64,000 nucleotides of DNA from contig DAML01000026.1 of assembly GCA_002497075.1 (NCBI GenBank), positions 128,493 to 192,492 of the forward strand, in the 5' to 3' direction. The position numbers were made by a program, and so were the translations under genes. Origin of the DNA: Methanomassiliicoccaceae archaeon UBA472. GTDB lineage: Archaea; Thermoplasmatota; Thermoplasmata; Methanomassiliicoccales; UBA472. The notes below the pieces were generated by a model that was given only the letters and a program-made list of their open reading frames with translations, did no database searches and had not been told where the DNA came from. This document shows positions 12,053 to 31,576 of the stretch, piece by piece (within the stretch, counting starts at the first letter, position 1; each line of letters opens with the position of its first letter).

Positions 12053-12114
12053 ACTCCAAACAAACCCTTTTTCCTTTTCCTTTTTATAATCCCTGAACAA
12101 TCACCGATTCCATA

Positions 12115-12190
12115 GGGCCCATGGTCTAGCGGTTATGACGACTCCCTTACACGGAGTAGGTCGCCGGTTCGAATCCGGCTGGGCCCACCA
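12115..12190 (+). tRNA. tRNA-Val (anticodon TAC), 3' CCA encoded
   Basis: Hand-folded cloverleaf. Acceptor GGGCCCA/TGGGCCC, anticodon stem ACTCC/GGAGT, loop CTTACAC, T-arm GCCGG-TTCGAAT-CCGGC, discriminator A then CCA. Confidence 0.92.
12175..12188 (+). repeat. attL core CCGGCTGGGCCCAC (inside the tRNA-Val 3' end)
   Basis: Identical 14-mer at 29902-29915 in the same orientation. Confidence 0.6.
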
Positions 12191-12226
12191 CTTCTTATAT
12201 CCAGACAATTATTTTTTGAATTCAAT

Positions 12227-13426
12227 TCAATCGTTTTCAGCCTTTATAGCTGGCTCGGTACGAAACATGCTGTTGTATGTTTCATTGACCCGGGCGAACG
12301 CACGGTCAGCCTTGGCGCGGCAATAGTACCGCTCCGTCGTCTTCGTCGATGTGTGCCTCATGCTCAACGATACCTGATCTATTGAGACGCCGCCGTCCAA
12401 CGCCAGCTGCCCTCCGGTAGGCCGGAAGTCCTTCCACTTGAAGGCGATGCCCGTACGCTTCACTACGTCGTTCTTCAACCGCCCGAACGCCTGCTGTGTG
12501 TAGTAGCTTACGCCATTGCAGGAAACGGCCGGTATCAGCGGTTCCGCGAACGCGATCCCCTTGGACCTGAGCATCTCTTCTCGTGCGCTGAGGTAATCGA
12601 GCGCGAAGGGCCTCAGGACGTCCGGTATCTGCAGGCGGCGAACTTCGCCGTATGAATCCTTGCCTTTCGGATTGGACACCAGGAAGGTCCACTTCCTCAC
12701 GTCCAAATCCCGCACGGACGCCTTCTGCAGCTCTCCCGGGCGCAATTGGAGGAAGGTGCACATGGTGACCGCGAAGCGGCACACCTCGCTCTTCCAACCT
12801 CCGAGAGCCTCGCAGGCATCGATTATCGCCTGCAGCTCCTCCTGCTCCAGGGAGAACGGCTCCCGGTGGTCGCACCCTATGCGGATACGCCCGGTCCTCA
12901 GCAGCTCCTCGATGACGTGATTACCGCCCTCCAGGCACACCTCCTTCAGCAGTTGCGTTTGCTTCCGGACGGTAGACCATTTTGGCGGCATCCCCCTCAC
13001 CTTCCTGTTCTTCAATGCCAGATATATCTCGATGGCGTCGTTCCCTGTGAACAGGTAGGGGTTCGAGGTGCTTATCGTGCCCTTGTCATTGAGGTCTTGC
13101 ACGATCGAGGCGATGAAGTGCAGTTTGCGCTCCCTCTCCTCTATCGTGCCTTCGCCCAAACGGGCACGGGCGTTCTTCAGGTATTGTCGATAGGCGCACA
13201 CGAAGGGATATCGACCCATTGTCTTCCCTCTCCTGTGCCCTGTCCGGGAACACGTGTTCCGTCGGGAGGAATTCCTTCCTCCTTTCGTATCAGACGTTCC
13301 CGAGGCGAGTTTTCCGCGTTTGAGCGGTATCCTCTCCTTGGAAGGAGAAGAGACGGTGAGATTACTTAAGTCTTGAGCAGGCCAGCTTCTCTCATGTGAG
13401 TGAATTGCCGGTCTTTTCCTTCTCAT
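12227..13426 (-). CDS. tyrosine recombinase / phage-type integrase
   Basis: C-terminal catalytic region carries LRPGEL (Arg I), KDFRPTG and MRHTSTKTTERYY (His/Tyr box). The stop lies 36 nt from the tRNA-Val end. The basic N-terminal 69 aa is optional; an alternative ATG is at 13219. Confidence 0.85.
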   Translation of the reverse strand: MRRKRPAIHSHERSWPAQDLSNLTVSSPSKERIPLKRGKLASGTSDTKGGRNSSRRNTCSRTGHRRGKTMGRYPFVCAYRQYLKNARARLGEGTIEERERKLHFIASIVQDLNDKGTISTSNPYLFTGNDAIEIYLALKNRKVRGMPPKWSTVRKQTQLLKEVCLEGGNHVIEELLRTGRIRIGCDHREPFSLEQEELQAIIDACEALGGWKSEVCRFAVTMCTFLQLRPGELQKASVRDLDVRKWTFLVSNPKGKDSYGEVRRLQIPDVLRPFALDYLSAREEMLRSKGIAFAEPLIPAVSCNGVSYYTQQAFGRLKNDVVKRTGIAFKWKDFRPTGGQLALDGGVSIDQVSLSMRHTSTKTTERYYCRAKADRAFARVNETYNSMFRTEPAIKAEND

Positions 13427-13506
13427 TATCTCAGCGCCTTTCTGTTTATCCTGTCACGCTTTCTCCGCCGTTTTCGATAAAAAAAATAATTAAAAAGGGT
13501 TTGAGA

Positions 13507-13722
13507 TCAGGCTTCGTCCGACTCCTCTTCCGCGGATTCGTCCTCGATGTCCTCCTCTGATTCCATGCCGTGGAAGTCCTCGATGTAACGTCGAACAACG
13601 TATTCGAGGAAGTCCTCCACCGACATGTTCTGTTTCTCGGCTATCTCTACTGCCCGCGAACGCACAGGTTCCGGAAAGATCTCTTCAATGCTTTCATACA
13701 TTATTTCATCCTGCTCTCTCAT
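13507..13722 (-). CDS. small acidic protein, possible ribbon-helix-helix regulator/excisionase-like (71 aa)
   Basis: Sits directly upstream of the integrase on the same strand. The central segment VRSRAVEIAEKQNMSVEDFLEYVVRRYIE has an RHH-like helix-turn-helix pattern, followed by a poly-acidic tail. Weak evidence. Confidence 0.4.
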   Translation of the reverse strand: MREQDEIMYESIEEIFPEPVRSRAVEIAEKQNMSVEDFLEYVVRRYIEDFHGMESEEDIEDESAEEESDEA

Positions 13723-14078
13723 CGATCTCGAAAGAGCATTTGGTATTATTTTGGAAGGTCGTATATATTCCTCGTGTGAGCAGGATTTCCGCTTCTTTTC
13801 TGCTCAATTTTTTACGATCTGGCCTATCCATATATTTTTAAACAGTTTTGTTACCACAGTGCTCGAGTATTTCCGAAAAATATCGAAATCGGAAATCCTT
13901 TGAGACACTCAATTATTAATCGATTTTTTAGCCGAATTAAAAAAGTTTTTTTTCAGAGAGTGCGGTGAAAAATCTATAAAAAATGGCTTAGATGTGCAAT
14001 TCGGACATGAGCATTCGCCCAGATCGAAAGAGTAGGAAACTATCGTCCTCTATGTAAGACAAGGTTGGTTGGAAAATG

Positions 14079-14681
14079 TTATTTCATTCCTATATGGGAT
14101 TTTCGACGGCGGAAGATCATTTCGGCCATGCAGTTGTATGCACCGTCAAATGCGCTATCGTTATTCTCCTGCAATGGTGGAAACGACCTTATCTCTCCTT
14201 TTGCCAATTCCCAATGGGGACAATGTGCTGGACACTCTGAGTTCCCTGGGCCGGGATGGATCAGGCAATCATGATCTCTGATATCTGGATGGGCCAAACA
14301 GAAACACCTGATGAACTCCTGCGGTGGGATGGCATGGAAAATGCATAATCTTCCCGCATACTGCTTACTGCACTTTGAACAATTATTGAATGGAACGTTC
14401 TCGAGCACCATTTTAGCATGTTCGTTGACCGTTTTGATCGACAACGCGAATTCTTGGTAAAACAGATCCGGGTCTTCATCCATCATTATGCTTTCACCCC
14501 GGGCGGTCATCCATATGTTATATGGCCATGATGACATGGTTGTTGTCACAGAGTCTTCAGTTCTCAGAGAGTCGACCTCCCTCCCTGTTCTGTGCAGTTT
14601 CATGAGTCCGTGGCGCATGGCACAACATAGCGCACCTTCCTCGGGTCTTTTCTGGACTTCTTCATTCGCCATATCGATCAT
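14079..14681 (-). CDS. hypothetical Cys/His-rich protein (200 aa)
   Basis: Longest ORF in the AT-rich part of the island. The C-terminal half has dense C/H spacing (CSKCSK..C..H, CFCLAH, HDCLIH, CPAHCPH), suggesting zinc binding. No family recognised. Confidence 0.45.
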   Translation of the reverse strand: MIDMANEEVQKRPEEGALCCAMRHGLMKLHRTGREVDSLRTEDSVTTTMSSWPYNIWMTARGESIMMDEDPDLFYQEFALSIKTVNEHAKMVLENVPFNNCSKCSKQYAGRLCIFHAIPPQEFIRCFCLAHPDIRDHDCLIHPGPGNSECPAHCPHWELAKGEIRSFPPLQENNDSAFDGAYNCMAEMIFRRRKSHIGMK

Positions 14682-14782
14682 TTCATACCCATTCCTATTC
14701 CATCAACGACCATTAGAATCTATTGAGGTTAACGATATAGTTGAGTTGATACATATTTTTATTTTATTATTATAAACCCAAT

Positions 14783-14800
14783 TTCACTCACATGAGTGAA
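14783..14800. promoter_or_regulatory. 8-2-8 inverted repeat TTCACTCA-CA-TGAGTGAA in a divergent intergenic region
   Basis: Read directly. It lies between the divergently oriented ORFs 14079-14681 (-) and 14858-15190 (+), in very AT-rich DNA. Confidence 0.3.
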
Positions 14801-14857
14801 TTACTGGCTATCGAAAATTAGGGTCAAATTAATATATTTATATTTGTTAGTTGAGAG

Positions 14858-15190
14858 TTGGTAAAAATGATAAAAACGAAAAGGAACAGAATCGAAAAGA
14901 ATGATGCCAAACTCGATTTAGAAAAGATCAAGGTCGGAGATGTGGTGGCCATCGAGTGGCTTGACGTCCACGCATACGAGAGAATACGGTTGGACGAGAT
15001 CCGTGACCTTGAAGAGCCCGGCGCCACTCGTTGCTGGGGAGCGGTGGTCCGGCTGTCGGAAAGTTACATCTTCATCGCCCACGAGATCGGCGATAATGAT
15101 GCGGATGGAGTATGGATTGAAGCTCTGCCCTACGGGATGATCCGTTCATGTAATATTATCAGTTGTGTTGAGATCGAACTTGATCAGTAG
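14858..15190 (+). CDS. hypothetical protein (110 aa)
   Basis: ATG ORF with protein-like composition, divergent from the 200-aa ORF. No family recognised. Confidence 0.4.
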   Translation: MVKMIKTKRNRIEKNDAKLDLEKIKVGDVVAIEWLDVHAYERIRLDEIRDLEEPGATRCWGAVVRLSESYIFIAHEIGDNDADGVWIEALPYGMIRSCNIISCVEIELDQ

Positions 15191-16030
15191 CAGGATAATA
15201 AAAGTGGGTTGTGACTTCAGTCTTTTTTGTCGACTTAAAGCGATTGAACATTTCTTCTCTATAACGGGTCAGCACTCCACAGTAACAGTTCAGTTGAATT
15301 TTCGACTCAACTCAACCATCGTTCACACAGGATTCGTCTTCTGGCCGCCTCATTATTAAAGTCTTCAAAGACTTTCAAAAAAGTGAAAAAGACTTACATT
15401 CGATGCCTAATGAATAAATGACTTCTGTCAGAGTCTTTCTTTTAATTTGAAGGATGACTGTAATGTTGGTTTAATAAACTCCATCATCAAAGACAGACCC
15501 TCTGTCATTTCATTTACAGATCGTCCCCGTTGATCACCAAGACAACATTACACGTTGGGGGGGGGTCTCAAAACGAATGGGATATTATGTTTAATCAACT
15601 CCACCTAATGATAGGAGAAAATTCGTAATAATCCCGAACTCACCAGTTGATGGTGCTATTCGAACGAAATAATTTGGTGAATAGATGCTGACGTATTGGT
15701 GTCCAGTACTGAAAGCATCAACGTTTCTACTACAGAACGACATAGTTGGGTGTCAAGGAAATGTAGGATCACATAATGGGCGTTCCGGGAGGAGGAGAAC
15801 GCTGCTTCATACGCAACAAAGGGCATTCCGGTGCAAAAGATTGAACGTTTGCGGTCCATGCTGCAGGGAACGATGACCACTCACGCTCGTAGGAATCAGA
15901 ATGGTTCGATGCTCCATCAATCATACCATCGGAAACGACAGCCAAACCGGCATGGTAGGTTATGATTCCGTCGATAGCATATGTCAAATCCATCGTTTAC
16001 GACAACAATTATTATTTTTAGAAACATAGG

Positions 16031-16046
16031 TATATAATTTAAATAT
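16031..16046 (+). promoter_or_regulatory. TATA-box-like element (TATATAATTTAAATAT) upstream of the giant gene
   Basis: AT-rich box 33-48 nt upstream of the ATG at 16079, consistent with an archaeal TATA box and a short leader. A purine-rich GGGGAAGAAGG precedes the ATG. Confidence 0.35.
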
Positions 16047-16078
16047 CAAACAATGTCCTCTTCATCCGGGGAAGAAGG

Positions 16079-19000
16079 ATGAGGGAAGCCAGCCTCAAAT
16101 TGATTAGCGTAGCTTGTGCTCTGATCATGGTCCTGACCGTGTTTCAGGTAACGACGACGAACGCATCTGCTAGCGATCCAGGCGAGATCGCAGAAATCAA
16201 TCCGACAATACACGATCACCGTCAATTGACCATCTCGAACGAAGGAGCAGTGTCTCCGGCATCGGCGATGTCATCGGAAGGAACGCTCCATGTGGTTTGG
16301 GTGGACATGACCTCAAGCGGTGTAGAACTTAGTTATAAGCAATCCATCGACAACGGAACCTACTTCACTCCCGATCTTATAATATCCTCAAATTTCTATT
16401 CCATAACAAACATTTCTATTTCCTGCCAGAACGACCTGGATATAGGCATTGCGTTCGAAGGATGCCTGGACGAAAGTTCGGATCCCACGGTCTATCTGTT
16501 GTGCTCATCCAACGGTGGCCTGTCTTGGAGCCAAGCGTACCAACTGTGCGAGGGTTCCTCTCCATCAGTGTTTGCGAGGAACGGGTGCCTTTATCTCGGA
16601 CTAACAAGACCATACAACAATTCCTTCGTTTTCTCCATATTGAACTTCACGATAGATGACAACGAGGTTGTGAACAGCGCATCAATGATATCCCTGTCGA
16701 TCGGTGAAGGCTTCGGGAAGATCACTGGTGATGAGTCAGAAATATATTATGCGGTCCGATGCAGCGATGGTATAACCTATGGAAGCATAGACTACGACGG
16801 GCACCAGGTCGATACCAGCAGGTATGTCAGGAACATATACTCTGGTAATGTGTCAGACCTCGATATGCTTCTCAGCGATGACAGGCTATTCATCGTCTGG
16901 TCACTCAACGACGATGTTGATGCATACATCTTTGGTCTGATCTCATCAAGCGATCATCAATCCTGGGCCGGAATTGATGTCTCGAACGCCGAGGGTGGTT
17001 TCGGGTCGGTCTCTGTCACTGCCTGCAGCACAGGTTTTTTCGTCGCCTGGGAGAATGATACCAAGGCATGGACGGAGATAACCGCGTCTCAGCTATCTTC
17101 GGATGGTACCATCACCATCGATGCGATGCGGCTATCCACCGATCGCGTAGAATCGGCGTGCCCTTCGGTCACGACCGATGCGAACGGAGAGGTGGCCGGC
17201 ATATGGGTCGAAGAGCACTACCAGACCACGGAACTGTTCTTCTTCCAGGACATCCTTTTCAAATCCCTCGACATTCGTTCGATGGAGGAATACATCGCCT
17301 CTTTGGATGACGATATCTTCACCAGTTCAACAGCCAGACCCGAGCTTATCGCATCGATCGAACTTATTACGGGGTGCATGGACAATGCTGACGATGAGGG
17401 TGCCATAACCGAGATCGGGTCCCTATTGTCTAAGGTCGACGGGTTCATTGGTGGGGCAACGGGCAACGACCTCATAGATTCGTTCCCAGTTCAGATCAGG
17501 ATATATGATGTGCTATTGTCTGTAAGAGATACGCTGTCAAGCAGCGAATGCCCGACGGGCATGGCGATCTCGAACCTTGCATCCGCACGTGACAGCAATT
17601 CAGCCGTAATCACATGGACGACATCCTCTGACGCCACATCTGTCGTGGAATACGGCATCGATCCATCCTACGGGAGCATCGCCACCGGCGTGAGTGGGAC
17701 CTCGCACACAGTAACGATCACAGGGCTGTCCGCCTCCACCACCTACTACTACAAAGCCAGATCGATGTCTACGATCGATCCGTCGTACACAGCAAGCAGT
17801 GCTTCAACTTTCACGACGGATGACAGCCTGAACTTTATACGTGCTCTCGGCACCGATTCCGATGTCATCTATATCTCCTCTTCATCAGTCCGTATTCGAT
17901 GGACAACGTCAATAGAAAGCACATCCGTCGTTGATTATGGGCCCACATCTTCATATGGCAACACAGTCGACGGAACCAGCGGCGTTTCGCACTCCGTGAC
18001 GATAACTGGACTATTGGCGGAAACGCTGTACCATTACAGGGTCAGATCTGTGTCATTGTCCGATCCATCGGATATGATCAGCGGCACCGATGCCAACTTC
18101 ACCACGAACGCCGCCGAGGTCTCCAGCGCCACGGTCACGGTCCTGAGCTCAAGCTCCGTCACCATCGCCTGGGCGACCTCCCTTACCAGCACATCCTATG
18201 TCGATTATGGCAATACCTCGTCATACGGGAGCACCGCAACAGGAACGAACGGCACATCGCACTCGGTTACTCTTACTGGACTATTGGCGGCTACCGCATA
18301 CCATTTCAGGGTAAGGTCCATATCCTTGACCAACGACACGAACGTGGATTGCAGCGCTGACGGATCATTCACCACAGGTTCTGCAGAGATATCCAGCGTA
18401 ACGGTAACGATGAGCGGTTCCTCCGTCACCATCACCTGGACGACCACGTCCACGCGCACCACGGTGGTTGAATACGGCACCGACTCTTCATATGGGAACA
18501 TCATGACTGGAGTGAGCGGCACTTCGCACTGGGTGACCATCACAGGACTTTATCCCTCCACGACGTATCATTTCAGGGCGAAATCTGTCTCGACCTCCAC
18601 CTATTACAGTACCGACAGGACATTCACCACAGGCATTTCTGCAATATCAGACATAGTGATCTCGATAGGATCGACATCCACCATCATCACCTGGACGACC
18701 TCCTCTCCAAGCGGAACGTCGGAGATCGAATACGGAACCGATTCCTCCTACGGATGCTCAGCGACCGGTACGACGTCTGGCAATTCGCACACTGTAACCT
18801 TGACGGGGCTCTCCTCGTCCACGACGTATTATTTCCGAGCGAAGACAGTGCGCAGTCAGGACATTTACTACAGCGTTGAAACGGTCTTTTCCACCCCAGC
18901 TATCACTATCAGCGACATAAGTATAATCTCCGTCAGCCCCAGCTCGATTGCCATCACCTGGACCACATCCCTCAGTGGTACGTCCGTGGTAGATTACGGC

Positions 19001-22000: not shown

Positions 22001-25000
22001 CACAGTGTAACGATCTCAGGACTGGCCTCGGCCACCACATATCATTTCTTGGTCAGTTCCGTATCCTCCACGAACTCCTCCGATACCTCTTACGGTGTCG
22101 ATGCGACGTTCAGCACGAGCTCGATAACGATAACCTTTTTGCAAACGACCGTTCTCTCGTCCACATCAGCGCGCATCGTCTGGAACACGGACTTCGCCGG
22201 TTCGACCATGATCGAGTACGGAAGGACGACATCGTATGGTACGACTACCATAATCTGTGGCAATAGTACCTACCATTCGATAACGTTGAGCGGGCTGAAC
22301 TATAACACAAGATACTATTACAGAGTCACTTCGGTCTCACAGTCCAATTCCGCGGATTCCGTGCAGCATGAAGGATATTTTACAACCCCGGTAGTCACGA
22401 TATCTAATCTTGCGACCATCACGACCAATTATACCGCATCGATCACCTGGTCCACGAACATCGCAGCAACAACGGTGGTCGAATATGGCACGACCACTTC
22501 GTATGGTCTAACGGTCACCGGCGACAATGGGGCTTCTCACTCCGTGTCAATAATTGATCTCCTCCCGGGAACGACCTACTACTACCGGGTGAAATCAGCC
22601 TCCACGACATATGGCAGTGATGTAAGGACTTTGACAGGCTCGTTCACAACCAAGTCTGTTAATGACGCCGAAAAAGGGATTGATGCCGGTAGCAACATCT
22701 CAGGAGCTCTCCACATAGTGACCGGTTCGTTCTCGGGAGCGCTGTTCAGCCAATATGACGTCTCTGACTATTACAAGGTATATGCAAATAGCGGTCAGCA
22801 GATACAGATCATACTTACCGTACCCAGCGGATGCAATTATGATCTAAATCTGCTGGATTCGTCAGGCGCCTCCATGGGCGCGTCCAACAACGCTGCGGGC
22901 CAGACCGACAGCATCGACTTCATCGCGCCTTCATCCGGTTACTGGTACATCGCAATAACGTGGGTGTCAGGCCCCGGTTCTTGTACATACTCGTGCTCGG
23001 TCGATGTTTCCGCGGGGCAGGACATATACGATCTGGACGTCGGATCTTCCGGCGATTCGATCATCTCCGATCATCTTCCCGGGATGAGCATCCATGATGT
23101 CGACGATCTGTGGAAAGATCCCGTGGGATCGGTTAGGCAATGCGGTGAGAACGCAGCGTTCCTGCTCAATCTGTACGAGGTTTCGTATCAGGCCGGCGTC
23201 GGTTATCTGATCACCATTCGCTACTATGCCACCGCGCCTACGGCCGTGCAGGTTCTATGCAATGGGGTATGGGTGAATGTTGCCGCACTTCCCGCTCCGT
23301 CCTCGTATTGGAGCTATTCTTTCGTCCTTTCGCCAGAATACATCAACGACGCTCTGCCTGGCGAGATAGGCTGCAACGTAGAGCTCCGGTTCGATCACGC
23401 GCTCGAGGTCGATACCATCAGCGCGGTAGCCTATTCGTACACGACGGACCTCAGCCTGCCGATCATAGCAAATCGCAACCCCGGGATCGCCTTGATGTCC
23501 GGATGGACGATCGAAAACGGTATCGCCAACGGCACCGACGGTTCCACTTTGACCGTATCGGTCCCTCTGACCACCGTGAGCTACGATCTAACGTTCACCT
23601 ACCTCAACGCCTCCGATGGGATGATGGTCGAGATGTACACTTCGGCCGGATGGACGTCCGTCGGTGCGCTCAATAGATGGGGCTCGTCCGCCACGGTAAC
23701 GCTGAACTATCTCAACTATTACGATTCGGATTCTACCCTTACCGGAATGAACCTTCTGTTAAGGGTAAGTGGGGGGCAATTCGATCTCACGAACCTCACA
23801 TCCGTGGCCATCATGCCTTCGGCCGCCTTTACGGACGTGGGCGTTGCCGGGGATTCAGCGTTCTCCGGTCTCACGACGAAGCTGTTCGGCGTGAGCGTCC
23901 TAGATGATGGCAGATGGTCCGGTATAACGACCAACGGCGGGGTCAGCTTGAGAACGGTCACATCATCCGTAGCATATTTCTATCTCAACGCGCCCGTGTC
24001 CGATCAGAGCTATCGCATCGATATTACGTATAAGACATCATCCACATCCGGTGGCATATACCAGTTGCTCAGTTCAACGCCCTCAAAAAAGCTTGGTACG
24101 CTCACTGGAGATGGTACATGGCGCACGCTTTCCGTCTGGGTCTCGTCCGACTCTTTCATAGATGGTGCGGCCGGGTCCTTCATCAATGCAAAATTCAGTA
24201 TAGGAAACGCAAATGGCACGCTCGTATCCTCGTTCACCGTCTATGTCGATTCTGATAAGGATACGTTGACGGACTGTCAGGAAACGGTGAACTACGGAAC
24301 GGACCCGTTCTCCGCGGACACGGACTATGATGGACTGAACGACAATGTGGAGCTCAGTAGCCTATGGGATACCGACCCATGCGATGCCGATACCGACTCG
24401 GATGGCCTTATGGATGGTAGCGAGATCTGGAGCCAATCCTGGTCGAACGATGAGTTCTATAACGTGACACACAATGCCGATGCCCTCATCAGCTATTCGC
24501 TCCCGGCGCTGGCCAATGTCACCGCCGCAATGCTCCTGATAGGTATCTCAAGCGAGAGCATGAGCGATATCGCCGTGTACATCAGAATGGATTCCGGGTC
24601 GTGGAAAACGCTATTGTACCGAACTGCATCGGGCTCCACCATCTACGCAAGCTACGACCTCCTGGCCAACAGATATGCGAGCTCCAATTTCGCCAGCTCG
24701 CACACCTGGTGCATAATGGTGAAAGACCTCAACCACAATGACATTGGCGGGGAGGTGCAGTACGTTTCTATGCAGGTCAGTGGTACCACGGACGCGAACG
24801 ATCCCGATACGGATGGGGATGAAATACTGGACGGCGAGGAGGTCGATCTGGGAGTCGATGGATGGTCGACGAATCCCGTGCTCGCCGACACGGACGGCGA
24901 CGACCTTTCAGACCATATCGAGATAAACGGAGTTTATACGCCCTGCCATACCGAGACCGATCCCACGCTCAAGGACACCGACGGTGACGGTTACGACGAC

Positions 25001-26911
25001 AACGACGATCTGTACATGGGCGATGCGGTGCTCAGGGTCACGTTGTTGAACTATTCGTCGCTCGCTTCCTATGGCGCTTGGCCCAATGAGCAGGAAATCG
25101 TCGACGTCTTCTTCGTCATCACCTATGTGCAGGGAAATATAGAGCTAGCAACGAAGCAGCTGATCGATGCGCATAAGGATCAGATGTACTATCTGAACTG
25201 GAAATATGACATCGACATCCCCGACAACGTCACATGCGTCAGCATGATCTTCGAGGCGGTCGCTGAGGGCGCTGCAGAGAGCGGCATTGGTGATGGTAAG
25301 CTGGATATTGACAATGGGTTTGATACTGATACGTACAATGTCGATTGGAACCTCAATAATACATCATTCTTTGGCATAGGCACTGATGGCGGAGATCGTG
25401 GAGCATATCTGTCCGTCAATTTGCAGGTGGCTACGGCAGAGAAGGCCAACGTCATTATCATCAACGGCACGGGGGACGGCGGGGACTACGGTCTCGACGA
25501 GGTCTCTCCCGGCGTGTACCGTTACTCAGCGGACGAACAGGTGTACCTGATCAACCTGAACGTCAGCTCGATAAGCACGCACTTCCAGCAGGGCATGAAC
25601 ACCATTATCCTCCCGAGGGCCATCGCCCTCGAGTGCCAGCTGAACGACACGCTGTACGATCTTGGTTCCATGACCAGTTCGAACGTCCTGTACAACGCCT
25701 CGTTCTACAGCACGAACATGAGCAGCTCCACCTCATCCTCTCATATCGTGGTCGTGATAACCAAAAACGTCACCGCGACGCAAGCGGAAGCGATATTGAC
25801 GATGCTGACCTTCAATTCCACCAACGCACGCATCGGCAACAATGTGACCATATCGTCCACAGCGCTCTACCTGCTGCACCTGCCGGGCGATGTCCTTTCC
25901 GCGATACCGACATCTGTTGAGAATGCTGGTATGGGGGAGGGTCCATCGTACTTCAGCCCAACTGGCCTTATAACAGATCTCGCTGAGATGGCGTTCGGTT
26001 TCCTTGTCTGGCTTGCGACCGGGGGTCTACTGCTCCTCTTGGCTCATCTGGTGCTATTGGGCCTCGAGGCAATCGCGAACTTGGCCTCCTCCGCGGCCTC
26101 TGCCGTCATGGAGGCAGTGGACGTTATCGTCGACGCGTTCTGCGCGTTCGTGGATTGGGTGATAGATACGCTCATGGCTTCCCTCGACGCTATCTTCTCT
26201 CCGATCATCGACAGCATCGAGAACGCGTTAACGTCCTACTGCGAGGGGGTAGGGATGGCTTATCTAAGGGCTGAACAGGACGTGGTCGAATTCGGCACCG
26301 TGACCGGAGATACGCTCGGTGCGGTCTTCAATGCAGTAAATGCAAACCTGTTCATGCTGATGATAGGGGTGGGAATATCGCTCAAGCTCATACTCGATGC
26401 CTTCACCGTCCTTACCGCTGGCATGAGCTTCCTGCTCATATTGCTCATATCCCCAGTTATCGGGTACATCATGAATGAGGTCATCAAGGCATTCGATTAC
26501 GATGAATTCACTGGCGCGATATGTGACACCTTCGACGGAATTTGGGATTGGATGGTCGATGTGTTCGGTCCAGGTGAGGATCCACCCCAGCGAGAACAGA
26601 TTGCATGGGAGGCGGGCAGCTTCATGATGGGGGTCCTCGGGTCGATCTATTCTTCGAACGGGCTTCTCAACAAGGTACTTCTCCAATCAGTATGTTTCGC
26701 ATGCGGTATAATATCGATCATCCTAGGAATATATGGTACAAGCGTAAATAGTACTGGGTGCGGAATACTTGGAATTGTATTGGGGGTCGGGCCAGTACTA
26801 TATTCGATTCGTGATGTATTCACTCTCAATAATGCAGATAATAGAATATTGGCTGGTATAGTGGCTACATTTGGACTCGTAGGCATCATGTGTTCGTATA
26901 AGGCTTTGTGA
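16079..26911 (+). CDS. giant secreted multidomain surface protein (3610 aa)
   Basis: Uninterrupted 10.8 kb ORF. N-terminal signal (LISVACALIMVLTVFQVTTTNASA). Asp-box/BNR-like motifs (SSNGGLSW, SIDNGTYF). 19 tandem Fn3-like repeats. PPC-like domain (YDVSDYYKVYANSGQQIQIILT). Two blocks of Asp-rich DxDxDG calcium-type repeats. About 6-7 TM helices at the C-terminus. Confidence 0.9.
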   Translation: MREASLKLISVACALIMVLTVFQVTTTNASASDPGEIAEINPTIHDHRQLTISNEGAVSPASAMSSEGTLHVVWVDMTSSGVELSYKQSIDNGTYFTPDLIISSNFYSITNISISCQNDLDIGIAFEGCLDESSDPTVYLLCSSNGGLSWSQAYQLCEGSSPSVFARNGCLYLGLTRPYNNSFVFSILNFTIDDNEVVNSASMISLSIGEGFGKITGDESEIYYAVRCSDGITYGSIDYDGHQVDTSRYVRNIYSGNVSDLDMLLSDDRLFIVWSLNDDVDAYIFGLISSSDHQSWAGIDVSNAEGGFGSVSVTACSTGFFVAWENDTKAWTEITASQLSSDGTITIDAMRLSTDRVESACPSVTTDANGEVAGIWVEEHYQTTELFFFQDILFKSLDIRSMEEYIASLDDDIFTSSTARPELIASIELITGCMDNADDEGAITEIGSLLSKVDGFIGGATGNDLIDSFPVQIRIYDVLLSVRDTLSSSECPTGMAISNLASARDSNSAVITWTTSSDATSVVEYGIDPSYGSIATGVSGTSHTVTITGLSASTTYYYKARSMSTIDPSYTASSASTFTTDDSLNFIRALGTDSDVIYISSSSVRIRWTTSIESTSVVDYGPTSSYGNTVDGTSGVSHSVTITGLLAETLYHYRVRSVSLSDPSDMISGTDANFTTNAAEVSSATVTVLSSSSVTIAWATSLTSTSYVDYGNTSSYGSTATGTNGTSHSVTLTGLLAATAYHFRVRSISLTNDTNVDCSADGSFTTGSAEISSVTVTMSGSSVTITWTTTSTRTTVVEYGTDSSYGNIMTGVSGTSHWVTITGLYPSTTYHFRAKSVSTSTYYSTDRTFTTGISAISDIVISIGSTSTIITWTTSSPSGTSEIEYGTDSSYGCSATGTTSGNSHTVTLTGLSSSTTYYFRAKTVRSQDIYYSVETVFSTPAITISDISIISVSPSSIAITWTTSLSGTSVVDYGTTTLYGSTVTGTTGTSHSVTLTGLSSTTTYHFRVRSVSATNSSDTVNSNDSTFRSGMIISGITVTSINSITVTIAWANSDGCTSVIEYGTTVSYGSSISDGNNTSHSVTLTGLSPSTTYHYRIKLISETDPSDVTPSLDRTFTTNPSEIYVTTVSGISSTSVTITWTTASIGTSVIDYGTTASYGNTATGTSGTSHSVILTGLTYNTTYHFRAKSVLSSSTYYSADTTFTTNSPEITDVAITINSGSIVISWTTSSRGTSVVEYGVTTSYGSTVTDDTSTYSHSVTITGLPTATTYHFRAKSVIYSQSAYSADTTFTTAGITISSISLTNVNSNSVKITWTTSASGTSTVEYGATSSYGLTAISSGGTSHSVTLTGLSPATTYHYRVVSTSATTSSDTAYSTDSTFTSIPAEVSSVTVTISYTSVTFVWNTGATMTSVVEYGTTSSYGSTATGNDGTHHSVTITNIPSAATYHFRVVSSKLNSDHVTYQYAYSADSMFTISALTISDVVVTPVNSITVTIAWNTSISGTSVIEYGTDSSYGCSVTGTSGNGRYHSVSLTSLSASTTYHYRIVSASLTNSSDIAYSADSTFTTGAAEISNVIVTLLGSNSASITWTTVRSSTSVVEFGLTSSYGSTATGNSNTLAHSVTLTGLSSATVYHFRAKSVTTLYGTYYSEDITFNTPAIAMSSVTAVHVSSTSVNIIWTTSISGTSVVEYGTNSSYGSTITGTSGTSHCVALTGLPSDVIYHFRVRSASTTNSSDITCSNDSTFRCGITVSNIAVIPVSSTSVTITWTTSLSGTSVANYGATTSYGSTATGSSGTSHSVTLTGLTYSTTYHFRVRSTSATNSSDIAFGNDSTFRSGIAVSNVRCTVGTNSATVTWTTSISGSTVVEYGPTSSYGYTKTSWSSGTSHSVTITGLSSATTYHFRVKSVSSTHSSDIGYSNDSTFVTPAITISDIAYGVSGPSAVITWTTSVTGSSVVEYGLTTGYGNTVSDTRNVLSHSVTISGLASATTYHFLVSSVSSTNSSDTSYGVDATFSTSSITITFLQTTVLSSTSARIVWNTDFAGSTMIEYGRTTSYGTTTIICGNSTYHSITLSGLNYNTRYYYRVTSVSQSNSADSVQHEGYFTTPVVTISNLATITTNYTASITWSTNIAATTVVEYGTTTSYGLTVTGDNGASHSVSIIDLLPGTTYYYRVKSASTTYGSDVRTLTGSFTTKSVNDAEKGIDAGSNISGALHIVTGSFSGALFSQYDVSDYYKVYANSGQQIQIILTVPSGCNYDLNLLDSSGASMGASNNAAGQTDSIDFIAPSSGYWYIAITWVSGPGSCTYSCSVDVSAGQDIYDLDVGSSGDSIISDHLPGMSIHDVDDLWKDPVGSVRQCGENAAFLLNLYEVSYQAGVGYLITIRYYATAPTAVQVLCNGVWVNVAALPAPSSYWSYSFVLSPEYINDALPGEIGCNVELRFDHALEVDTISAVAYSYTTDLSLPIIANRNPGIALMSGWTIENGIANGTDGSTLTVSVPLTTVSYDLTFTYLNASDGMMVEMYTSAGWTSVGALNRWGSSATVTLNYLNYYDSDSTLTGMNLLLRVSGGQFDLTNLTSVAIMPSAAFTDVGVAGDSAFSGLTTKLFGVSVLDDGRWSGITTNGGVSLRTVTSSVAYFYLNAPVSDQSYRIDITYKTSSTSGGIYQLLSSTPSKKLGTLTGDGTWRTLSVWVSSDSFIDGAAGSFINAKFSIGNANGTLVSSFTVYVDSDKDTLTDCQETVNYGTDPFSADTDYDGLNDNVELSSLWDTDPCDADTDSDGLMDGSEIWSQSWSNDEFYNVTHNADALISYSLPALANVTAAMLLIGISSESMSDIAVYIRMDSGSWKTLLYRTASGSTIYASYDLLANRYASSNFASSHTWCIMVKDLNHNDIGGEVQYVSMQVSGTTDANDPDTDGDEILDGEEVDLGVDGWSTNPVLADTDGDDLSDHIEINGVYTPCHTETDPTLKDTDGDGYDDNDDLYMGDAVLRVTLLNYSSLASYGAWPNEQEIVDVFFVITYVQGNIELATKQLIDAHKDQMYYLNWKYDIDIPDNVTCVSMIFEAVAEGAAESGIGDGKLDIDNGFDTDTYNVDWNLNNTSFFGIGTDGGDRGAYLSVNLQVATAEKANVIIINGTGDGGDYGLDEVSPGVYRYSADEQVYLINLNVSSISTHFQQGMNTIILPRAIALECQLNDTLYDLGSMTSSNVLYNASFYSTNMSSSTSSSHIVVVITKNVTATQAEAILTMLTFNSTNARIGNNVTISSTALYLLHLPGDVLSAIPTSVENAGMGEGPSYFSPTGLITDLAEMAFGFLVWLATGGLLLLLAHLVLLGLEAIANLASSAASAVMEAVDVIVDAFCAFVDWVIDTLMASLDAIFSPIIDSIENALTSYCEGVGMAYLRAEQDVVEFGTVTGDTLGAVFNAVNANLFMLMIGVGISLKLILDAFTVLTAGMSFLLILLISPVIGYIMNEVIKAFDYDEFTGAICDTFDGIWDWMVDVFGPGEDPPQREQIAWEAGSFMMGVLGSIYSSNGLLNKVLLQSVCFACGIISIILGIYGTSVNSTGCGILGIVLGVGPVLYSIRDVFTLNNADNRILAGIVATFGLVGIMCSYKAL
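17561..22653 (+). repeat. 19 tandem, diverged coding repeats of about 89-95 aa (about 270-285 nt), Fn3-like
   Basis: Unit consensus read from the translation: I(T/A)WTTS..(G)TSVVEYG(T)TSSYGST.TG.SGTSHSVTLTGLS..TTYHFRV(R/K)S.S. I counted 19 (E/D/N)(Y/F)G cores. Confidence 0.9.
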
Positions 26912-26916
26912 TAGGA

Positions 26917-27408
26917 ATGAAAAGCGATACAATTGAATCCGAAACTGAACTTCTCAACGCACCATGTAAATGGGTTTTTATCATGTACTCAGCTCTGGCA
27001 GCATTATCTTTCCTAATCGGGTTACTAATGCTGCCTGCAGAGGGCATTAAATTGGTTGTTCCTTTTATGATGTTTATTTTCAGCGCAATATTCTTTTTTG
27101 GAACAGTTTATCGGGAACTCATCCACCGCCCGAAATCCATCATCGTAAGGGATGATGGGGTGCTAATGAAGTTCCGCATCTATAAGCCAAGATTCCTCAG
27201 GTGGGAAAACATACTCTTTATCGTTGATTCTGGACCACCATCACAGATCATTATAGGATTAGATGGCGACGGAGCTCTACAACCGGTCAATGGGCATTTC
27301 TATTCCATGACATACAGGGCTGCCAGCGAAGTCAAGAAGGCTTATTATGAAAGGACTGGCGGATACCCGATGACCAAGGATGAATATTTTAAGACGAAAA
27401 AGAAATGA
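26917..27408 (+). CDS. small 2-TM membrane protein with a soluble beta-rich C-terminal domain (163 aa)
   Basis: ATG lies 5 nt after the giant-gene stop; a GTG at 26908 overlaps it. Two TM helices (FIMYSALAALSFLIGLLML and VVPFMMFIFSAIFFFG) precede a domain of about 100 aa. Very AT-rich. Confidence 0.6.
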   Translation: MKSDTIESETELLNAPCKWVFIMYSALAALSFLIGLLMLPAEGIKLVVPFMMFIFSAIFFFGTVYRELIHRPKSIIVRDDGVLMKFRIYKPRFLRWENILFIVDSGPPSQIIIGLDGDGALQPVNGHFYSMTYRAASEVKKAYYERTGGYPMTKDEYFKTKKK

Positions 27409-28891
27409 GAGTATTTTGAGGGGGGATGGCGACGATGGCCTCAACACAATCTCCGCAGGCATTTACCGTTACAACTCCGACGACCAGGTGTACATGGTCA
27501 ACCTGAACGTATCCGGATCTAGCGCTCACTTCCAGTCCGGAATGAATACGATAATCCTTCCGCGCGCGATCGCCCTGCGGTGCCAGCTGAACGATACGCT
27601 TTACTACCTGCAGCACGTCGGCAATATGCCGTTGAACAACGTATCGTTCTACAGCACCGATCCCCTGAAGGCCACGGCGTCCGGTCACATAATCGCGGTC
27701 ATCAGCAAGAACGTCACCGCCTCGCAGGCCGAGGCGATACTGACAATGCTGACGCATGACGCGACGAACGGTCGCGTCGGCAACAATGTCACGATATCCT
27801 CCTCGGCGCTCTACCTGCTGCACCTGCCGTGCGACATCCTTTCCGCGATACCGACGACCGTCGAGAACGCCGGTCTGGGCAGCGGCCCGAGCTACTTCAG
27901 CTGGGGCGGTTTGATCAAGACCATCGTCAACATGACGTTCAACTTCCTGTTCTGGTGGGCTGCCGGAGGGGTGCTGCTTCTCTGGCTGCACCTGAAGGCG
28001 ATAGGGCTGGAGACGTTGGGAGGTCTCTGGGCAGGCGTAGGGGCGATGGTAGAGGATGCGGTGGATCACATCGTAGATGGACTCAACGCGCTCAAGAATT
28101 TGCTGCTGGATTTCGTGTACGATACTATACTGCCTTCCATCTCCTCTTTCATAGGTGACATCTGGAACGTAGTGGTCAGCTGGGGATCCGGATTGGTGGC
28201 ATCCCTGTATCGACTAGGCGGGCAGGTTGATTTTGGTTCGATGTCCGTGGCCCAAGCCGCCGATCAGTTCGTCGATGCGCTGATATTCAATGGGGTATTC
28301 CTCTGCGTGGTTGCTCTAGCCATTGCGCTGTACGCGGTGATGCTGGTGCTGAACCCAGTAATAGCGCCGTACGCCTTCGTGCTATCCGAGGTCGCACCGC
28401 TGCTCATCATCGCGATACTCATGGGCGGCTCCGGTCTGCTCAACGGGGCAAGCTCCTCCGGGATAGCCATGGCGTCGGACATCGTAGATCTAATCAGCGA
28501 ATTCCTTGGGGATGGGCTCGTTATTTTCGAAACGACAATGTGGAGCATCATCACGGGTGTGGTTGGGACGCTCATGACCTCAGTGGCAGCAGCAGTGAAG
28601 GTCTGTGCAAACACTTTCCTCTCCTTCGTCGTGTCGATCGTAGGAGCCATACTATCCTTTGCTGCTCTAACGCAGATCAATGAACAGACGACAATGGATT
28701 GGGTTATTGCAAGCGTTATTGGTTTTATATTATCAGCTTATGGTTTCTACCTATCTCTAACCGGGCCGAATTTAGACGGAAAAATATGCCCTGGATTTAA
28801 CGCCGTCTCAGATTTAATTTCCGGTCTAGGTTTCGGGGTATCGATATTATCATTAGGAGAAACATATCAGAAATTTGCTTCAAGGGGGTGA
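27380..28891 (+). CDS. 5'-truncated paralog of the giant protein C-terminal module (503 aa, polytopic membrane)
   Basis: From GDGDDGL onward it aligns with residues encoded from about 25471 of the giant gene. Examples: YRY..D.QVY..NLNVS, GMNTIILPRAIAL.CQLNDTLY, KNVTA.QAEAILTMLT, ALYLLHLP, LSAIPT.VENAG, GPSYFS. Exact nucleotide blocks of 24 and 19 nt are shared. It has no signal peptide. Confidence 0.75.
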   Translation: MNILRRKRNESILRGDGDDGLNTISAGIYRYNSDDQVYMVNLNVSGSSAHFQSGMNTIILPRAIALRCQLNDTLYYLQHVGNMPLNNVSFYSTDPLKATASGHIIAVISKNVTASQAEAILTMLTHDATNGRVGNNVTISSSALYLLHLPCDILSAIPTTVENAGLGSGPSYFSWGGLIKTIVNMTFNFLFWWAAGGVLLLWLHLKAIGLETLGGLWAGVGAMVEDAVDHIVDGLNALKNLLLDFVYDTILPSISSFIGDIWNVVVSWGSGLVASLYRLGGQVDFGSMSVAQAADQFVDALIFNGVFLCVVALAIALYAVMLVLNPVIAPYAFVLSEVAPLLIIAILMGGSGLLNGASSSGIAMASDIVDLISEFLGDGLVIFETTMWSIITGVVGTLMTSVAAAVKVCANTFLSFVVSIVGAILSFAALTQINEQTTMDWVIASVIGFILSAYGFYLSLTGPNLDGKICPGFNAVSDLISGLGFGVSILSLGETYQKFASRG

Positions 28892-28895
28892 TTAT

Positions 28896-29540
28896 ATGGA
28901 TGACAACCGAGGAGATGTATTATTCGAAGAAAAGTTACTAGGATGTTACTTACCAGGAGGATGGGAGTCATTTAGGAAAAAAAAAATTAATGCATATTTA
29001 GCTCGTGGGATAAACGCAATATTGATCGTTTTATTCATTGCCATGTTAGCGATTCAATTTGATTTAAATCATTTTAGACCGGTATCTATTCTGTGTGATT
29101 TATTATCTATTACTGGGATATTAATGGTCTTCTTAATTGGAGAAAATTTTTATAAAAACGGTGGAGTGTCCTCTAGACCAATAACCGTCCAATTGAGCGG
29201 TCTGACGATTCCCCCAATATACATCAGAGCTCTGTCCAAGGAGAAAGGCTTCATTCACAAGGACCTCATCGATCACCTCGAGGTAAGATGGCACAAGGAG
29301 CATACAGCCTACTTTTCCAAGGTAAGCAGTATAAATTGGTACGACGCACCCGTTGAGTTCGTCGTCCACCTTAAGAACGGGAAAGCTATAAGCTCCGGGA
29401 AGAGGCCTCCCGAGACCATACTGGAAGCGGTTGATACGATGGAGAGGGCCTGGGGGATCAAAGTGATACGCCAGGGCTTCAAGAGAGGAAGGATGGAAAA
29501 GATCGTGAACCTGGAGACGGTGGAGGAGAGGGAGCTTTGA
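28896..29540 (+). CDS. small 2-TM membrane protein with a soluble C-terminal domain (214 aa)
   Basis: ATG lies 4 nt after the stop of the 503-aa ORF; a TTG at 28875 overlaps it. Two TM helices (INAILIVLFIAMLAIQF and ILCDLLSITGILMVFLIG) precede a beta-rich domain. The 5' half is AT-rich. Confidence 0.6.
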   Translation: MDDNRGDVLFEEKLLGCYLPGGWESFRKKKINAYLARGINAILIVLFIAMLAIQFDLNHFRPVSILCDLLSITGILMVFLIGENFYKNGGVSSRPITVQLSGLTIPPIYIRALSKEKGFIHKDLIDHLEVRWHKEHTAYFSKVSSINWYDAPVEFVVHLKNGKAISSGKRPPETILEAVDTMERAWGIKVIRQGFKRGRMEKIVNLETVEEREL

Positions 29541-29901
29541 CGGGACAGCATCGCTTTAACAGAATGTATGGGCATGGGACGGAGCTGGTCAGAAAGGTCT
29601 CATAAAAACATATGTTGGTTCGGTCAATCGTCCGGGCCTCCTCCCTCAGCTTTATCCGAACGAACCAAAGGTCATACGGCCCCTAAGAGGGAGGTGTGCG
29701 CGGATGTCGTTGAAAATTTGACATCCTCGGGGTCCGTTGATCAATTCATGAGCGAAAAGCTAAGCCAGATGGACAGCCTAATCGGGACACCTCAACGATC
29801 TCGGATAATAATAAAATAAAAGGGTTTGAACGACTGGCCTGCGCACACCGTCCGATAATTGATTTCAAATTTTCAATTCCTGGCTTGAGTGACTCGTGGT
29901 C

Positions 29902-29915
29902 CCGGCTGGGCCCAC
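29902..29915 (+). repeat. attR core CCGGCTGGGCCCAC
   Basis: Exact copy of tRNA-Val positions 12175-12188. It is followed by AT-rich spacer and then the high-GC CPBP protease gene. Confidence 0.6.
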
Positions 29916-30031
29916 TTTGATCCCATATGAACACAATTCTTTATTCTGAATATATTACCTATCCGATTGTAGATAACTAAAATTATGTATTTTAGTTAAT
30001 TATATTAACATATATTTTTAAACGTTTTTTA

Positions 30032-30688: not shown

Positions 30689-30779
30689 TGACCCCGACAA
30701 ATAAACTCTAAAGCCCGTTTAAAAAAATCTGGAAATAGATTATTCGTAAATATACGAATGATTATTATGACTCGGTAAC

Positions 30780-30965
30780 ATGGCCGACGAAATCGAGAAG
30801 GGACCATGCCTTTGGCATGCGCCGGACGACCGATGCGCCAATTGTAAAGCAAGGCGCTACCGGCTTGATGCTCTGGGCATGAAGGACATCTACGGCGAAT
30901 GCCGAGGCCAGGAAGATTACCGTACCTGCGAGTTCTATAAACTTAAACCGGTCCCGAAGTGCTGA
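30780..30965 (+). CDS. small Cys-rich protein (61 aa)
   Basis: ATG ORF with 6 Cys (C..H....C..C ... C......C ... C). It sits immediately upstream of the HEAT-repeat gene. No family recognised. Confidence 0.4.
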   Translation: MADEIEKGPCLWHAPDDRCANCKARRYRLDALGMKDIYGECRGQEDYRTCEFYKLKPVPKC

Positions 30966-30988
30966 TCGACCGTTAGGAGTGGGGTAAA

Positions 30989-31537: not shown

Positions 31538-31576
31538 TGGCAACGGTTATATCATCGCGGCCCTAATCGGCTGAAC

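Follow-up and report, generated by a model that had tools for sequence, protein, structure and literature searches.

An integrative island at a tRNA-Val gene of a Methanomassiliicoccales chromosome: probable site-specific insertion, a shared backbone and a giant surface protein with a cassette-like tail

The stretch of DNA analysed here, termed the window, comprises 64,000 nucleotides (nt) of contig DAML01000026.1 of Methanomassiliicoccaceae archaeon UBA472, and its positions 12191-29915 represent, with high probability, a site-specific integrative island at the 3' end of a tRNA-Val(TAC) gene in a Methanomassiliicoccales chromosome. The transfer RNA (tRNA) gene (12115..12190, + strand) is intact, as recognised by ARAGORN and the Rfam tRNA model (69.9 bits), and an Rfam scan of the island returned this tRNA alone. 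Its last 16 nt are partly element-derived and hold the core of the left attachment site (attL), CCGGCTGGGCCCAC (12175..12188, + strand), which recurs exactly and in the same orientation as the core of the right site (attR; 29902..29915, + strand), the displaced original 3' end of the host tRNA-Val. The 14-mer spans the 3' strands of both the T-stem and the acceptor stem, along with the discriminator base and one extra base. An inspection of the sequence that preceded this work, here called the original prediction, had claimed just two exact copies; indeed, no further one was found in the window, and none of 100 dinucleotide-preserving shuffles contained the motif. From left to right, the island consists of a conserved backbone (12191..15547) with a tyrosine integrase and three open reading frames (ORFs) termed o71, o200 and o110, a cargo bay (15548-29806) with the gene of a giant surface protein followed by o166, orf503 and o221, and a conserved right arm (29807..29901, + strand) that includes AATTGATTTCAAA at 29857-29869 and was delimited by comparison with the related loci L020 and L029 introduced below.

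The composition changes at the coordinates of the repeat, as had also been predicted. The G+C content of the island is 0.506 compared to 0.589 in the rest of the window; in 1-kb windows the mean is 0.505 inside (minimum 0.399) and 0.591 outside (standard deviation 0.032), and the tetranucleotide distance to the flanks is raised in all 2-kb bins from 12 to 30 kb, returning to background at 30 kb. The AT-rich stretches foreseen within the island are present, with a G+C content of 0.433 in its left part (13.2-16.1 kb), but they are not purely non-coding, as o200 and o110 are located there. Nor is the compositional anomaly confined to the island: the region at 56-62 kb is also atypical, with low G+C and a high tetranucleotide distance, because a second, unrelated giant gene lies there. 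This ORF of 2,404 amino acids (aa; 54356-61570, - strand) contains right-handed beta-helix/NosD repeats, an MG3-like domain and a single C-terminal transmembrane (TM) anchor; judging from these domains it is an ordinary 'adhesin-like protein', and it gave no BLASTP match to the giant protein of the island.

Comparison with related sequences, in which L numbers designate contigs or loci compared with the window and P numbers homologous proteins, reveals the insertion itself. Two metagenome contigs found via their CPBP protein, L017 and L019 (85% and 78% identical to that of the window), carry the peptidase gene, tRNA-Val(TAC) and the CPBP gene, with a gap of only ~110 nt between the tRNA and CPBP, i.e. 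the empty site for which a check in relatives had been suggested. By blastn, L017 130-1052 corresponds to window 11279-12193 and L017 1101-2962 to window 29974-31833, placing the breakpoints 5 nt past the left 14-mer (12193) and, across a poorly conserved spacer, 59 nt past the right one (29974). The relatives of the flanking peptidase all derive from Methanomassiliicoccales or allied uncultured archaeal metagenome-assembled genomes (MAGs). In two MAG contigs with more diverged peptidases, L003 (71% identical) and L004 (51%), there is neither island nor CPBP gene, and the order tRNA-Arg, peptidase, tRNA-Val, 61-aa ORF, 182-aa protein and aguB is kept, the promoter region of the 61-aa gene lying 30-40 nt past tRNA-Val; the longer L004 additionally keeps the aguA, VWA, MoxR and hydantoinase genes. 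The CPBP (Rce1-like) gene of the window (30032-30688) is preceded by a 116-nt spacer (29916-30031) with a G+C content of 0.198. It had been regarded as an ordinary flanking gene, and its composition is host-like (G+C 0.574). Since CPBP adjoins the tRNA in the closer relatives L017, L019 and L020 and is missing from the more distant L003 and L004, it is a single gene added at this tRNA in one lineage. The possibility of a third, degenerate att copy past the CPBP gene was considered as an explanation for the absence from L003 and L004 and was dismissed, the resemblance by eye being weak and the G+C of the gene host-like; no att remnant was found past the gene.

The element also occurs in another species at the same site (L020) and at another tRNA-Val gene (L029). 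L020 represents a sister island at the same tRNA-Val site, with host flanks 82-86% identical to those of the window, in which the sequence encoding the C-terminal 733 residues of the giant protein, a small gene for a protein with two TM segments (2-TM) and ~900 nt of decayed sequence precede the right end. This right end is 98.6% identical to that of the window over the last 74 nt, through CCGGCTGGGCCCAC, and 60% identical directly beyond, where the DNA of L020 resembles the flank of the empty site L017. Between L020 and the window, identity in the giant-gene segment is 92.8%, compared to 82.5% for CPBP and 86.5% for the downstream host DNA; the island is thus more conserved than its host flanks, which points to horizontal spread. 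In L029 the element abuts a tRNA-Val(CAC) gene whose 3' end differs by one base, and an 18-bp repeat, CCGGCTGAGCCCACCACT, recurs 12.3 kb away. The ~110 nt inside this repeat are homologous to the right arm of the window (76% identical), and the two right arms have the blocks AAAGGGTTT, AATTGATTTCAAA and CTGGCTTGAGTGAC in common. The G+C content of L029 is 0.42 in the island and 0.58 in the ~8 kb of host DNA past the tRNA.

Giant surface-protein loci are variable in methanogens generally, and the second giant gene of the window (54-61.6 kb) deviates in composition without being accompanied by att sites; the 14-mer could accordingly be a coincidence in an ancestral hypervariable surface-protein locus that never received an insertion. 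The shuffles speak against this explanation, and it is effectively refuted by the empty sites, which break within ~60 nt of both copies, by L020, where the conservation of the arm stops exactly at the 14-mer, and by L029, which repeats the pattern with the variant sequence of its own tRNA. Site-specific integration with regeneration of the tRNA 3' end, as originally read from the repeat, is hence supported by L017 and L019, by L020 and by L029.

Sequence comparisons further establish a family of elements, composed of a left backbone of ~3.4 kb, a right arm of ~110 nt and an exchangeable cargo bay in between, which is, as far as we found in the literature searched, undescribed. L029 and the window (12114-15547) are 89.7% identical at the nucleotide level, with 97% identity for the integrase, 81% for o71, 85% for o200 and 92% for o110. 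L029 carries entirely different cargo, in which PADLOC identified a Type IIG restriction-modification enzyme (E = 0) and a Ppl-like ATPase (1.5e-44) beside three unknown genes. In L031 and L032, o200 and o110 accompany an integrase of 32% identity at a tRNA-Lys gene, with a helicase, a methyltransferase and ResIII as cargo, and in L030 the o200/o110 pair is found beside BREX genes; the pair consequently accompanies two different integrase subfamilies. A 15-kb contig from a third sample contains an integrase gene, a 116-aa gene, o200 (82% identical), a 107-aa gene corresponding to o110 and an FN3 protein of >3,620 aa, in the same gene order as in the window. We also note that L029 and L032 derive from one and the same sample of the Joint Genome Institute (JGI; 3300021167), i.e. 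two members of the o200/o110 family are present in one community, with o200 proteins of 85% and 66% identity, integrases of 97% and 32% identity, and tRNA-Val(CAC) and tRNA-Lys as the respective targets.

Among the backbone genes, o200 (14079..14681, - strand) encodes a Cys/His-rich protein of 200 aa with 19 homologues (52-86% identity) in which the Cys and His residues are invariant, and on this pattern o200 is a real gene. The 110-aa product of o110 (14858..15190, + strand) is divergent from o200 and is 92% identical in L029, 53% in L030 and 61% in L031 and L032. Neither protein matched Pfam, NCBIfam, PHROG, PADLOC or the PDB; sequence searches of the PDB with o200 and the integrase yielded nothing useful, and a Foldseek search of the o200 model against the PDB returned noise (best E 0.06). 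The small, very acidic o71 (13507..13722, - strand), located beside the integrase gene, is 81% identical at the amino acid level in L029; it overlaps an ORF on the opposite strand and its status as a gene is weakly supported, and an analogous acidic ORF of 67 aa accompanies the integrase in L031 and L032. It could represent a directionality or regulatory factor, and o71, o200 and o110 together may serve the maintenance of the element or the control of its direction.

The integrase gene ends at 12227, 36 nt from tRNA-Val, exactly as had been noted. Its longest ORF extends to 13426 (399 aa); all aligned homologues, mostly of 325-330 aa, start with MGRYPF, and the gene therefore probably spans 12227..13219 (- strand) and encodes 330 rather than 399 aa. 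The similarity to curated integrase models is weak (Pfam PF00589 Phage_integrase, E 2e-6, 28 bits; NCBIfam XerA, 21 bits compared to a cutoff of 220), with a clearer match to PHROG_1 integrase (E 2.5e-16), and R160, E163, K185, K263-x-x-R266, H289 and Y299 are all present in the alignment, among them the full catalytic R-K-(H/K)xxR-H-Y set (R160, K185, K263xxR266, H289 and Y299). The 60 homologues identified carry, wherever a source name is attached, names of Methanomassiliicoccales or Thermoplasmata. In all six contexts readable beyond the stop codon, the integrase gene abuts a convergent tRNA 3' end, with a gap of ~38 nt in five of them and directly abutting as called in the sixth (L032). 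The targets are tRNA-Met (L011), tRNA-Val GAC (L012-L015), tRNA-Val TAC (L016 and the window), tRNA-Val CAC (L029) and, for the 32%-identical integrase, tRNA-Lys (L032). In addition, L011 (MAG GCA_026394395.1), where a 78%-identical integrase is found at tRNA-Met, contains, upstream of the integrase gene, a 178-aa protein with a Cas1 Pfam match (5376-5912) and an Eco57I-type methyltransferase (2572-4641), another conflict-type cargo.

When the two ends of the island are joined in silico, a 13-nt inverted repeat, AATTGATTTCAAA and TTTGAATTCAATT with one mismatch, flanks the core of the reconstructed attP at -45 and +40, the left arm TTTGAATTCAATT being located at 12215..12227 (+ strand) in the window. 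These arms are candidate integrase-binding sites. The predicted attP junction reads ...CTGGCTTGAGTGACTCGTGGTC-CCGGCTGGGCCCAC-CACTTCTTATATCCAGACAATT..., and the predicted repaired attB ...GGTTCGAATCCGGCTGGGCCCAC-TTTGATCCCATATGAACAC....

We propose that integration takes place as follows. The 330-aa recombinase of the island would exchange strands within the 14-nt identity of attP and the tRNA gene. The element provides a replacement tRNA 3' end with an encoded CCA (attL), owing to which tRNA-Val is intact, and the displaced host 3' end is left behind as attR. Excision may occur in present-day cells, and between cells the element would be transferred by an external route. Several observations weigh against present-day mobility. 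The core of 14 nt is short for such a core, and no direct repeats of at least 11 nt were found within 10 kb of the integrase homologues in L011, L012, L014 and L016. Both island ends are consequently definable in just two cases, the window and L029, and a single end in L020; the islands at the four other loci are probably longer than the 10-kb flank compared. The empty sites L017 and L019 belong to other species (~80-87% nucleotide identity to the window), the attP junction has no match in IMG/VR, and neither a circular form nor a repaired attB was seen at strain level.

The latter findings raise the question of whether the insertion, albeit real, is a fixed relic that is no longer mobile and has become a variable region of the chromosome. 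In addition to the lacking junctions, such a relic would account for the absence of transfer functions, for the near-identical sequence in two samples and for the occurrence of the same type of cargo at chromosomal loci with no integrase within the ~10 kb read on each side. As to the samples, window 20032-40688 is 100% identical to contig TOLCLC_10004848 (301,675 bp) of JGI metagenome 3300002498, designated L001, and window 27838-34799 matches a contig from a second sample at 99.96% identity. The integrase ORF is, however, intact with its full catalytic set, and the repeats are exact; moreover, a 97%-identical integrase and a 90%-identical backbone are found at a different tRNA with different cargo in L029, and the similarity of the islands in the window and L020 exceeds that of the host flanks. 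Together these findings argue for recent activity of the family, and we consider a fixed relic unlikely, albeit to be kept in mind.

The original prediction had found no genes for replication, capsid, partition or conjugation in the island, and Pfam, NCBIfam, PHROGs and PADLOC likewise revealed none of these, nor any packaging or defence function. No island ORF matched VirB4/TraG-type ATPases or a relaxase in Pfam or NCBIfam; portal, terminase, VP4-like spike, NTPase and Rep proteins were likewise not found by the profile searches, and PADLOC gave no match for any protein of the island. IMG/VR contains no relative of the integrase or o200 profile, INPHARED none of o200 or the integrase, and PLSDB none of o200. 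An integrative conjugative or mobilisable element is not supported, as Pfam and NCBIfam revealed no transfer genes among the island ORFs and PLSDB no relative of o200. In the absence of replication, virion and transfer genes, the element must use other routes between cells.

A provirus of an unrecognised archaeal virus, e.g. of the pleolipovirus type, in which the giant protein or orf503 would be a component of the virion or envelope, would also be typical in its size, tRNA integration and integrase, and pleolipovirus-like proviruses have been reported in Methanomassiliicoccales (PMC10919331). Weak PHROG matches of orf503 to tape-measure proteins (E 0.0035) could be taken in the same sense, but they lie in hydrophobic, low-complexity helices, and the integrase is the sole confident PHROG assignment. 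Capsid, portal, terminase, VP4-like spike, NTPase and Rep genes were not detected, neither the integrase nor o200 has a relative in IMG/VR or INPHARED, and the sister elements share just the backbone and carry restriction or defence cargo. Hence, a provirus is very improbable, and a pleolipovirus-like one was rejected on the lack of a VP4-like or any other virion gene.

Turning to the cargo, the island is dominated by a single gene (16079..26911, + strand), which accounts for 61% of its length (10,833 nt) in line with an earlier estimate of ~60% and 10.8 kb. According to Pfam, a repeat listing and hydropathy, the encoded surface protein of 3,610 aa consists of a signal-peptide-like N-terminus, an N-terminal domain of ~490 aa, 19 FN3/Pur_ac_phosph_N repeats (aa ~490-2190), a PPC domain, TSP3-type Ca-binding repeats, a conserved pre-membrane domain of ~240 aa and, at aa ~3362-3610, a variable tail of ~250 aa, the latter multi-helical with some six to eight hydrophobic segments by hydropathy. 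A tandem-repeat scan of the DNA did not register the FN3 repeats, the sequence being too diverged. Full-length homologues in other samples measure 3,607 and >3,620 aa, and the N-terminal domain is 25-28% identical to those of giant proteins in L026 and L028. Downstream follow o166 (26908..27408, + strand), a small 2-TM protein adjoining the tail, and orf503 (27380..28891, + strand), a stalk-less 'orphan' that joins a pre-membrane domain, matching giant aa 3121-3462 at 48% identity, to a membrane tail unlike that of the giant protein. Past the orphan tail, a second small 2-TM protein by hydropathy, o221 (28875..29540, + strand), has homologues at the same position in L026 and L028.

Comparison with the allele of L020 (P0113; 3,607 aa) demonstrates that the tail has been replaced. 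The two giant proteins are ~95% identical at the amino acid level until the motif ...AVDxIVDAFCAFVDW, with CAFVDW at residues 3356-3361 and the high identity reaching to ~residue 3350, and 14-30% identical thereafter. In the DNA, identity falls from 93% to ~50% at ~26130, which places the allelic switch point past ...AVDVIVDAFCAFVDW at 26130..26165 (+ strand). The tails of the two alleles are 21% identical and the small proteins, o166 and its counterpart, 28%. Conversely, L027, a chromosomal locus in another MAG, encodes an 859-aa protein whose tail is 98% identical to that of the window, with a following small protein of 96% identity, whereas its pre-membrane domain is just 69.5% and its stalk just 44% identical. 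The near-identity of tail and small gene beside a diverged domain suggests that tail and small gene move as a unit and separately from the remaining gene. Related tails are found in three pairs (98, 56 and 55%), and the same three pairs have the most similar small genes (96, 33 and 34%); these pairs are not independent of one another, and the correlation over all pairs, given below, is not significant.

Additional copies of the module accompany several of the giant genes. In L026 the giant gene is followed by three tail-plus-small-gene units and a remnant, in L028 the order is giant gene, small gene, orphan, small gene and remnant, and truncated remnants are also found in L027 and L020. Separately, the giant gene of L026 (356-7089; 1,783 aa) stops in the pre-membrane domain, beyond which the homology resumes in a different frame within a 461-aa gene; a frameshift, pseudogene formation or a scar left by recombination could account for this break. 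A search for the orf503 family gave 31 matches, with Methanomassiliicoccales as the sole organism named by any source and stand-alone members of 400-860 aa, and an exhaustive profile search of the family gave 556 representative clusters, of which 89 have E <= 1e-30. In long proteins (1.4-3.6 thousand aa) the module is always C-terminal, on FN3, PKD or TSP3 stalks, and many short N-truncated copies are present as well.

The replacement of tail and small gene, together with a stalk-less second tail, resembles polymorphic toxin/immunity loci, and on this ground surface discrimination or antagonism is the function towards which we lean, although a conflict or recognition system is a possibility we place somewhat below even chances. 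Formulated in full, and with slightly more reserve still, we tentatively propose an undescribed archaeal system of cell-cell discrimination or antagonism, acting at the surface of wall-less archaea. The 14-kb locus encodes a giant secreted FN3-repeat protein anchored by its multi-helix membrane tail, in which a polymorphic membrane-inserting tail, possibly pore-forming or fusogenic, would be presented on the giant stalk. The 2-TM partners would neutralise or recognise the tails, o166 being an immunity-like or partner protein of the giant tail, and the replacement of tail and adjacent small gene as a unit between alleles would come about through recombination of orphan cassettes at the pre-membrane domain. 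A minimal integrase island would carry the whole locus from one species of Methanomassiliicoccales to another; sister copies of this island hold restriction-modification or other anti-virus defence-type genes in their bay, and o200 and o110 would be new element-specific maintenance or excision factors.

A number of findings speak against this interpretation of the cargo. Tail identity shows no significant correlation with small-gene identity over the full set of 28 pairs (Spearman 0.21, p 0.28), and only the three non-independent pairs lie above the noise floor. Pfam, NCBIfam and PADLOC identified no toxin domain, secretion system or defence match in the variable C-terminus, which is a hydrophobic membrane tail and could be a mere fast-evolving anchor. 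The structure models are of low confidence (predicted local distance difference test, pLDDT, 52.8 for orf503 and 56.6 for o200), and the same type of cargo is found at the chromosomal loci L027 and L028, where neither an integrase nor a nearby tRNA was detected within the ~10 kb read on each side.

Alternatively, the cargo may be a plain adhesin or surface coat, in which the tail is a fast-diverging anchor, the small protein a chaperone or partner, and neither has a role in conflict or recognition. In favour of such a role, stalks of the FN3, PKD and TSP3 kinds are adhesin-typical features, an enrichment of FN3 proteins has been described for free-living Methanomassiliicoccales (PMC7883539), stand-alone family members of 400-860 aa exist, and Pfam, NCBIfam and PADLOC identified no toxin domain. 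We grant the adhesin a considerable chance, if one short of even. Yet gradual divergence does not give a fall from 93% to ~50% nucleotide identity in one step, and an adhesin leaves unexplained both the 98%-identical tail and 96%-identical small gene next to a domain of 69.5% identity and the arrays of stalk-less tail copies with decayed remnants; furthermore, the sister elements carry conflict systems. As far as we found in the literature searched, a polymorphic membrane-tail locus of this kind is undescribed, whichever function it serves.

A pore-forming CdiA-CT of E. coli EC93 pairs with a small membrane immunity protein, a combination comparable to the membrane tails and 2-TM proteins described here. 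In the cargo, as in polymorphic toxin loci (CdiA-CT/CdiI, Rhs; PMC8416519 section 15), the first gene is long and its product secreted, co-directed genes lie behind it, the C-terminus switches sharply from conserved to variable sequence, and stalk-less C-terminal copies, each with a small gene, are found downstream together with decayed remnants; the small gene adjacent to the C-terminus may be inherited with it here as well. In contrast to these systems, the locus of the window has no recognisable toxin fold or delivery system, its variable part is a membrane tail of ~250 aa, and the host is a wall-less archaeon; the likeness concerns gene organisation alone. Within archaea, the VARTIG modules of Thermococcales, whose function is unknown and whose organisation has been likened to polymorphic toxin systems, were reported to have no counterpart outside Thermococcales (Makarova et al. 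2021, PMC8416519). There too, a large Ig-fold-repeat protein leads the locus, its hypervariable C-terminal region recombines, and variable genes for small membrane proteins follow. The variable part is, however, an Ig domain in VARTIG, where homology to arCOG07710 is characteristic, and a membrane tail here, the comparison being one of architecture only, and the present locus rides on an integrase island.

As for the element, among the archaeal islands described so far PYG1 of Pyrococcus yayanosii comes closest, an island of 21.4 kb with a 43-bp repeat at tRNA-Gln for which excision was demonstrated (Li et al. 2016, PMC5126054). Both are archaeal integrative islands at the 3' end of a tRNA gene, with direct repeats, an intact integrase at one end, a G+C content ~10 points below that of the host in the case of PYG1 and likewise lowered here, and no identified replication module. 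They differ in the repeat and target (43 bp at tRNA-Gln in a hyperthermophile as opposed to 14-18 bp at tRNA-Val), in the presence here of o200 and o110 without database matches and of one giant gene locus as cargo, and in that the excision of PYG1 was shown experimentally, while the present element is known from sequence. In integrases of the SSV1 type, attP is located within the integrase gene, so that integration splits this gene, and the enzymes display the motif R...KxxR...Y (PMC8371274). The enzyme described here is likewise a tRNA-targeting tyrosine recombinase with a box II KxxR (KDFR); its gene, however, is left unsplit by integration and has full family length beside attL, and it is therefore not a 'suicidal' integrase of the SSV1 type. 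The YxxR motif of pNOB8-type integrases (PMC8371274) is absent from it.

Minimal integrase-bearing backbones with interchangeable conflict or defence cargo are familiar from bacterial integrative islands and phage satellites. The present family resembles these in the cargo of its sister elements, i.e. the Type IIG enzyme, the Ppl-like ATPase and the helicase/methyltransferase/ResIII set, and in the BREX genes beside the pair in L030. It differs in its archaeal host, in that no helper virus, packaging or replication genes were identified, and in backbone proteins without homologues in the phage and plasmid collections searched.

A tRNA-integrated island as such is an ordinary object of a textbook kind. 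For Methanomassiliicoccales, however, we found no published integrated elements of this kind in the literature searched, and since the members of this family can be recognised by their backbone, their cargo bay and well-defined ends, they offer a practical way of tracing islands, as well as defence or conflict genes, in these methanogens. To our knowledge no genetic system exists for Methanomassiliicoccales, and the integrase with its 14-18 nt tRNA-Val site is a candidate tool for site-specific integration in this order. The comparisons also indicate movement between species for the giant FN3 surface proteins of free-living Methanomassiliicoccales, and that their membrane tails behave as exchangeable cassettes with linked small genes. 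If toxin/immunity or kin recognition were the underlying function, the locus would be among very few such systems proposed for archaea, and the idea is directly testable. Further study is warranted both for the family of elements and for the giant protein with its cassette-like behaviour.

Some further observations concern annotation and the neighbourhood of the island. In the public JGI gene calls of L001, the 3,610-aa ORF is split into a 1,397-aa gene and a number of short genes on the reverse strand, and the public catalogue has no entry for the exact integrase product of 399 aa; catalogue searches for exact products would therefore miss the giant protein. A scan for sigma-70 promoters and terminators remained at background level, the sigma-70 model being unsuited to archaea. 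In the closest MAG (L009), an integrase-like sequence of 30% identity (110-853) is located beside tRNA-Arg(TCG) (920-997), the ortholog of which lies at 6299-6376 in the window. Finally, a palindromic motif, ATTATTCGTAAATATACGAATGATTAT (TTCGTA...TACGAA), is situated just 5' of the Cys-rich 61-aa ORF (window 30780-30965), at 30739-30766 in the window, ~1836-1862 in L003 and ~12351-12378 in L004. It is conserved among relatives whose neighbouring peptidase is just 51-71% identical and is probably an operator or promoter element.

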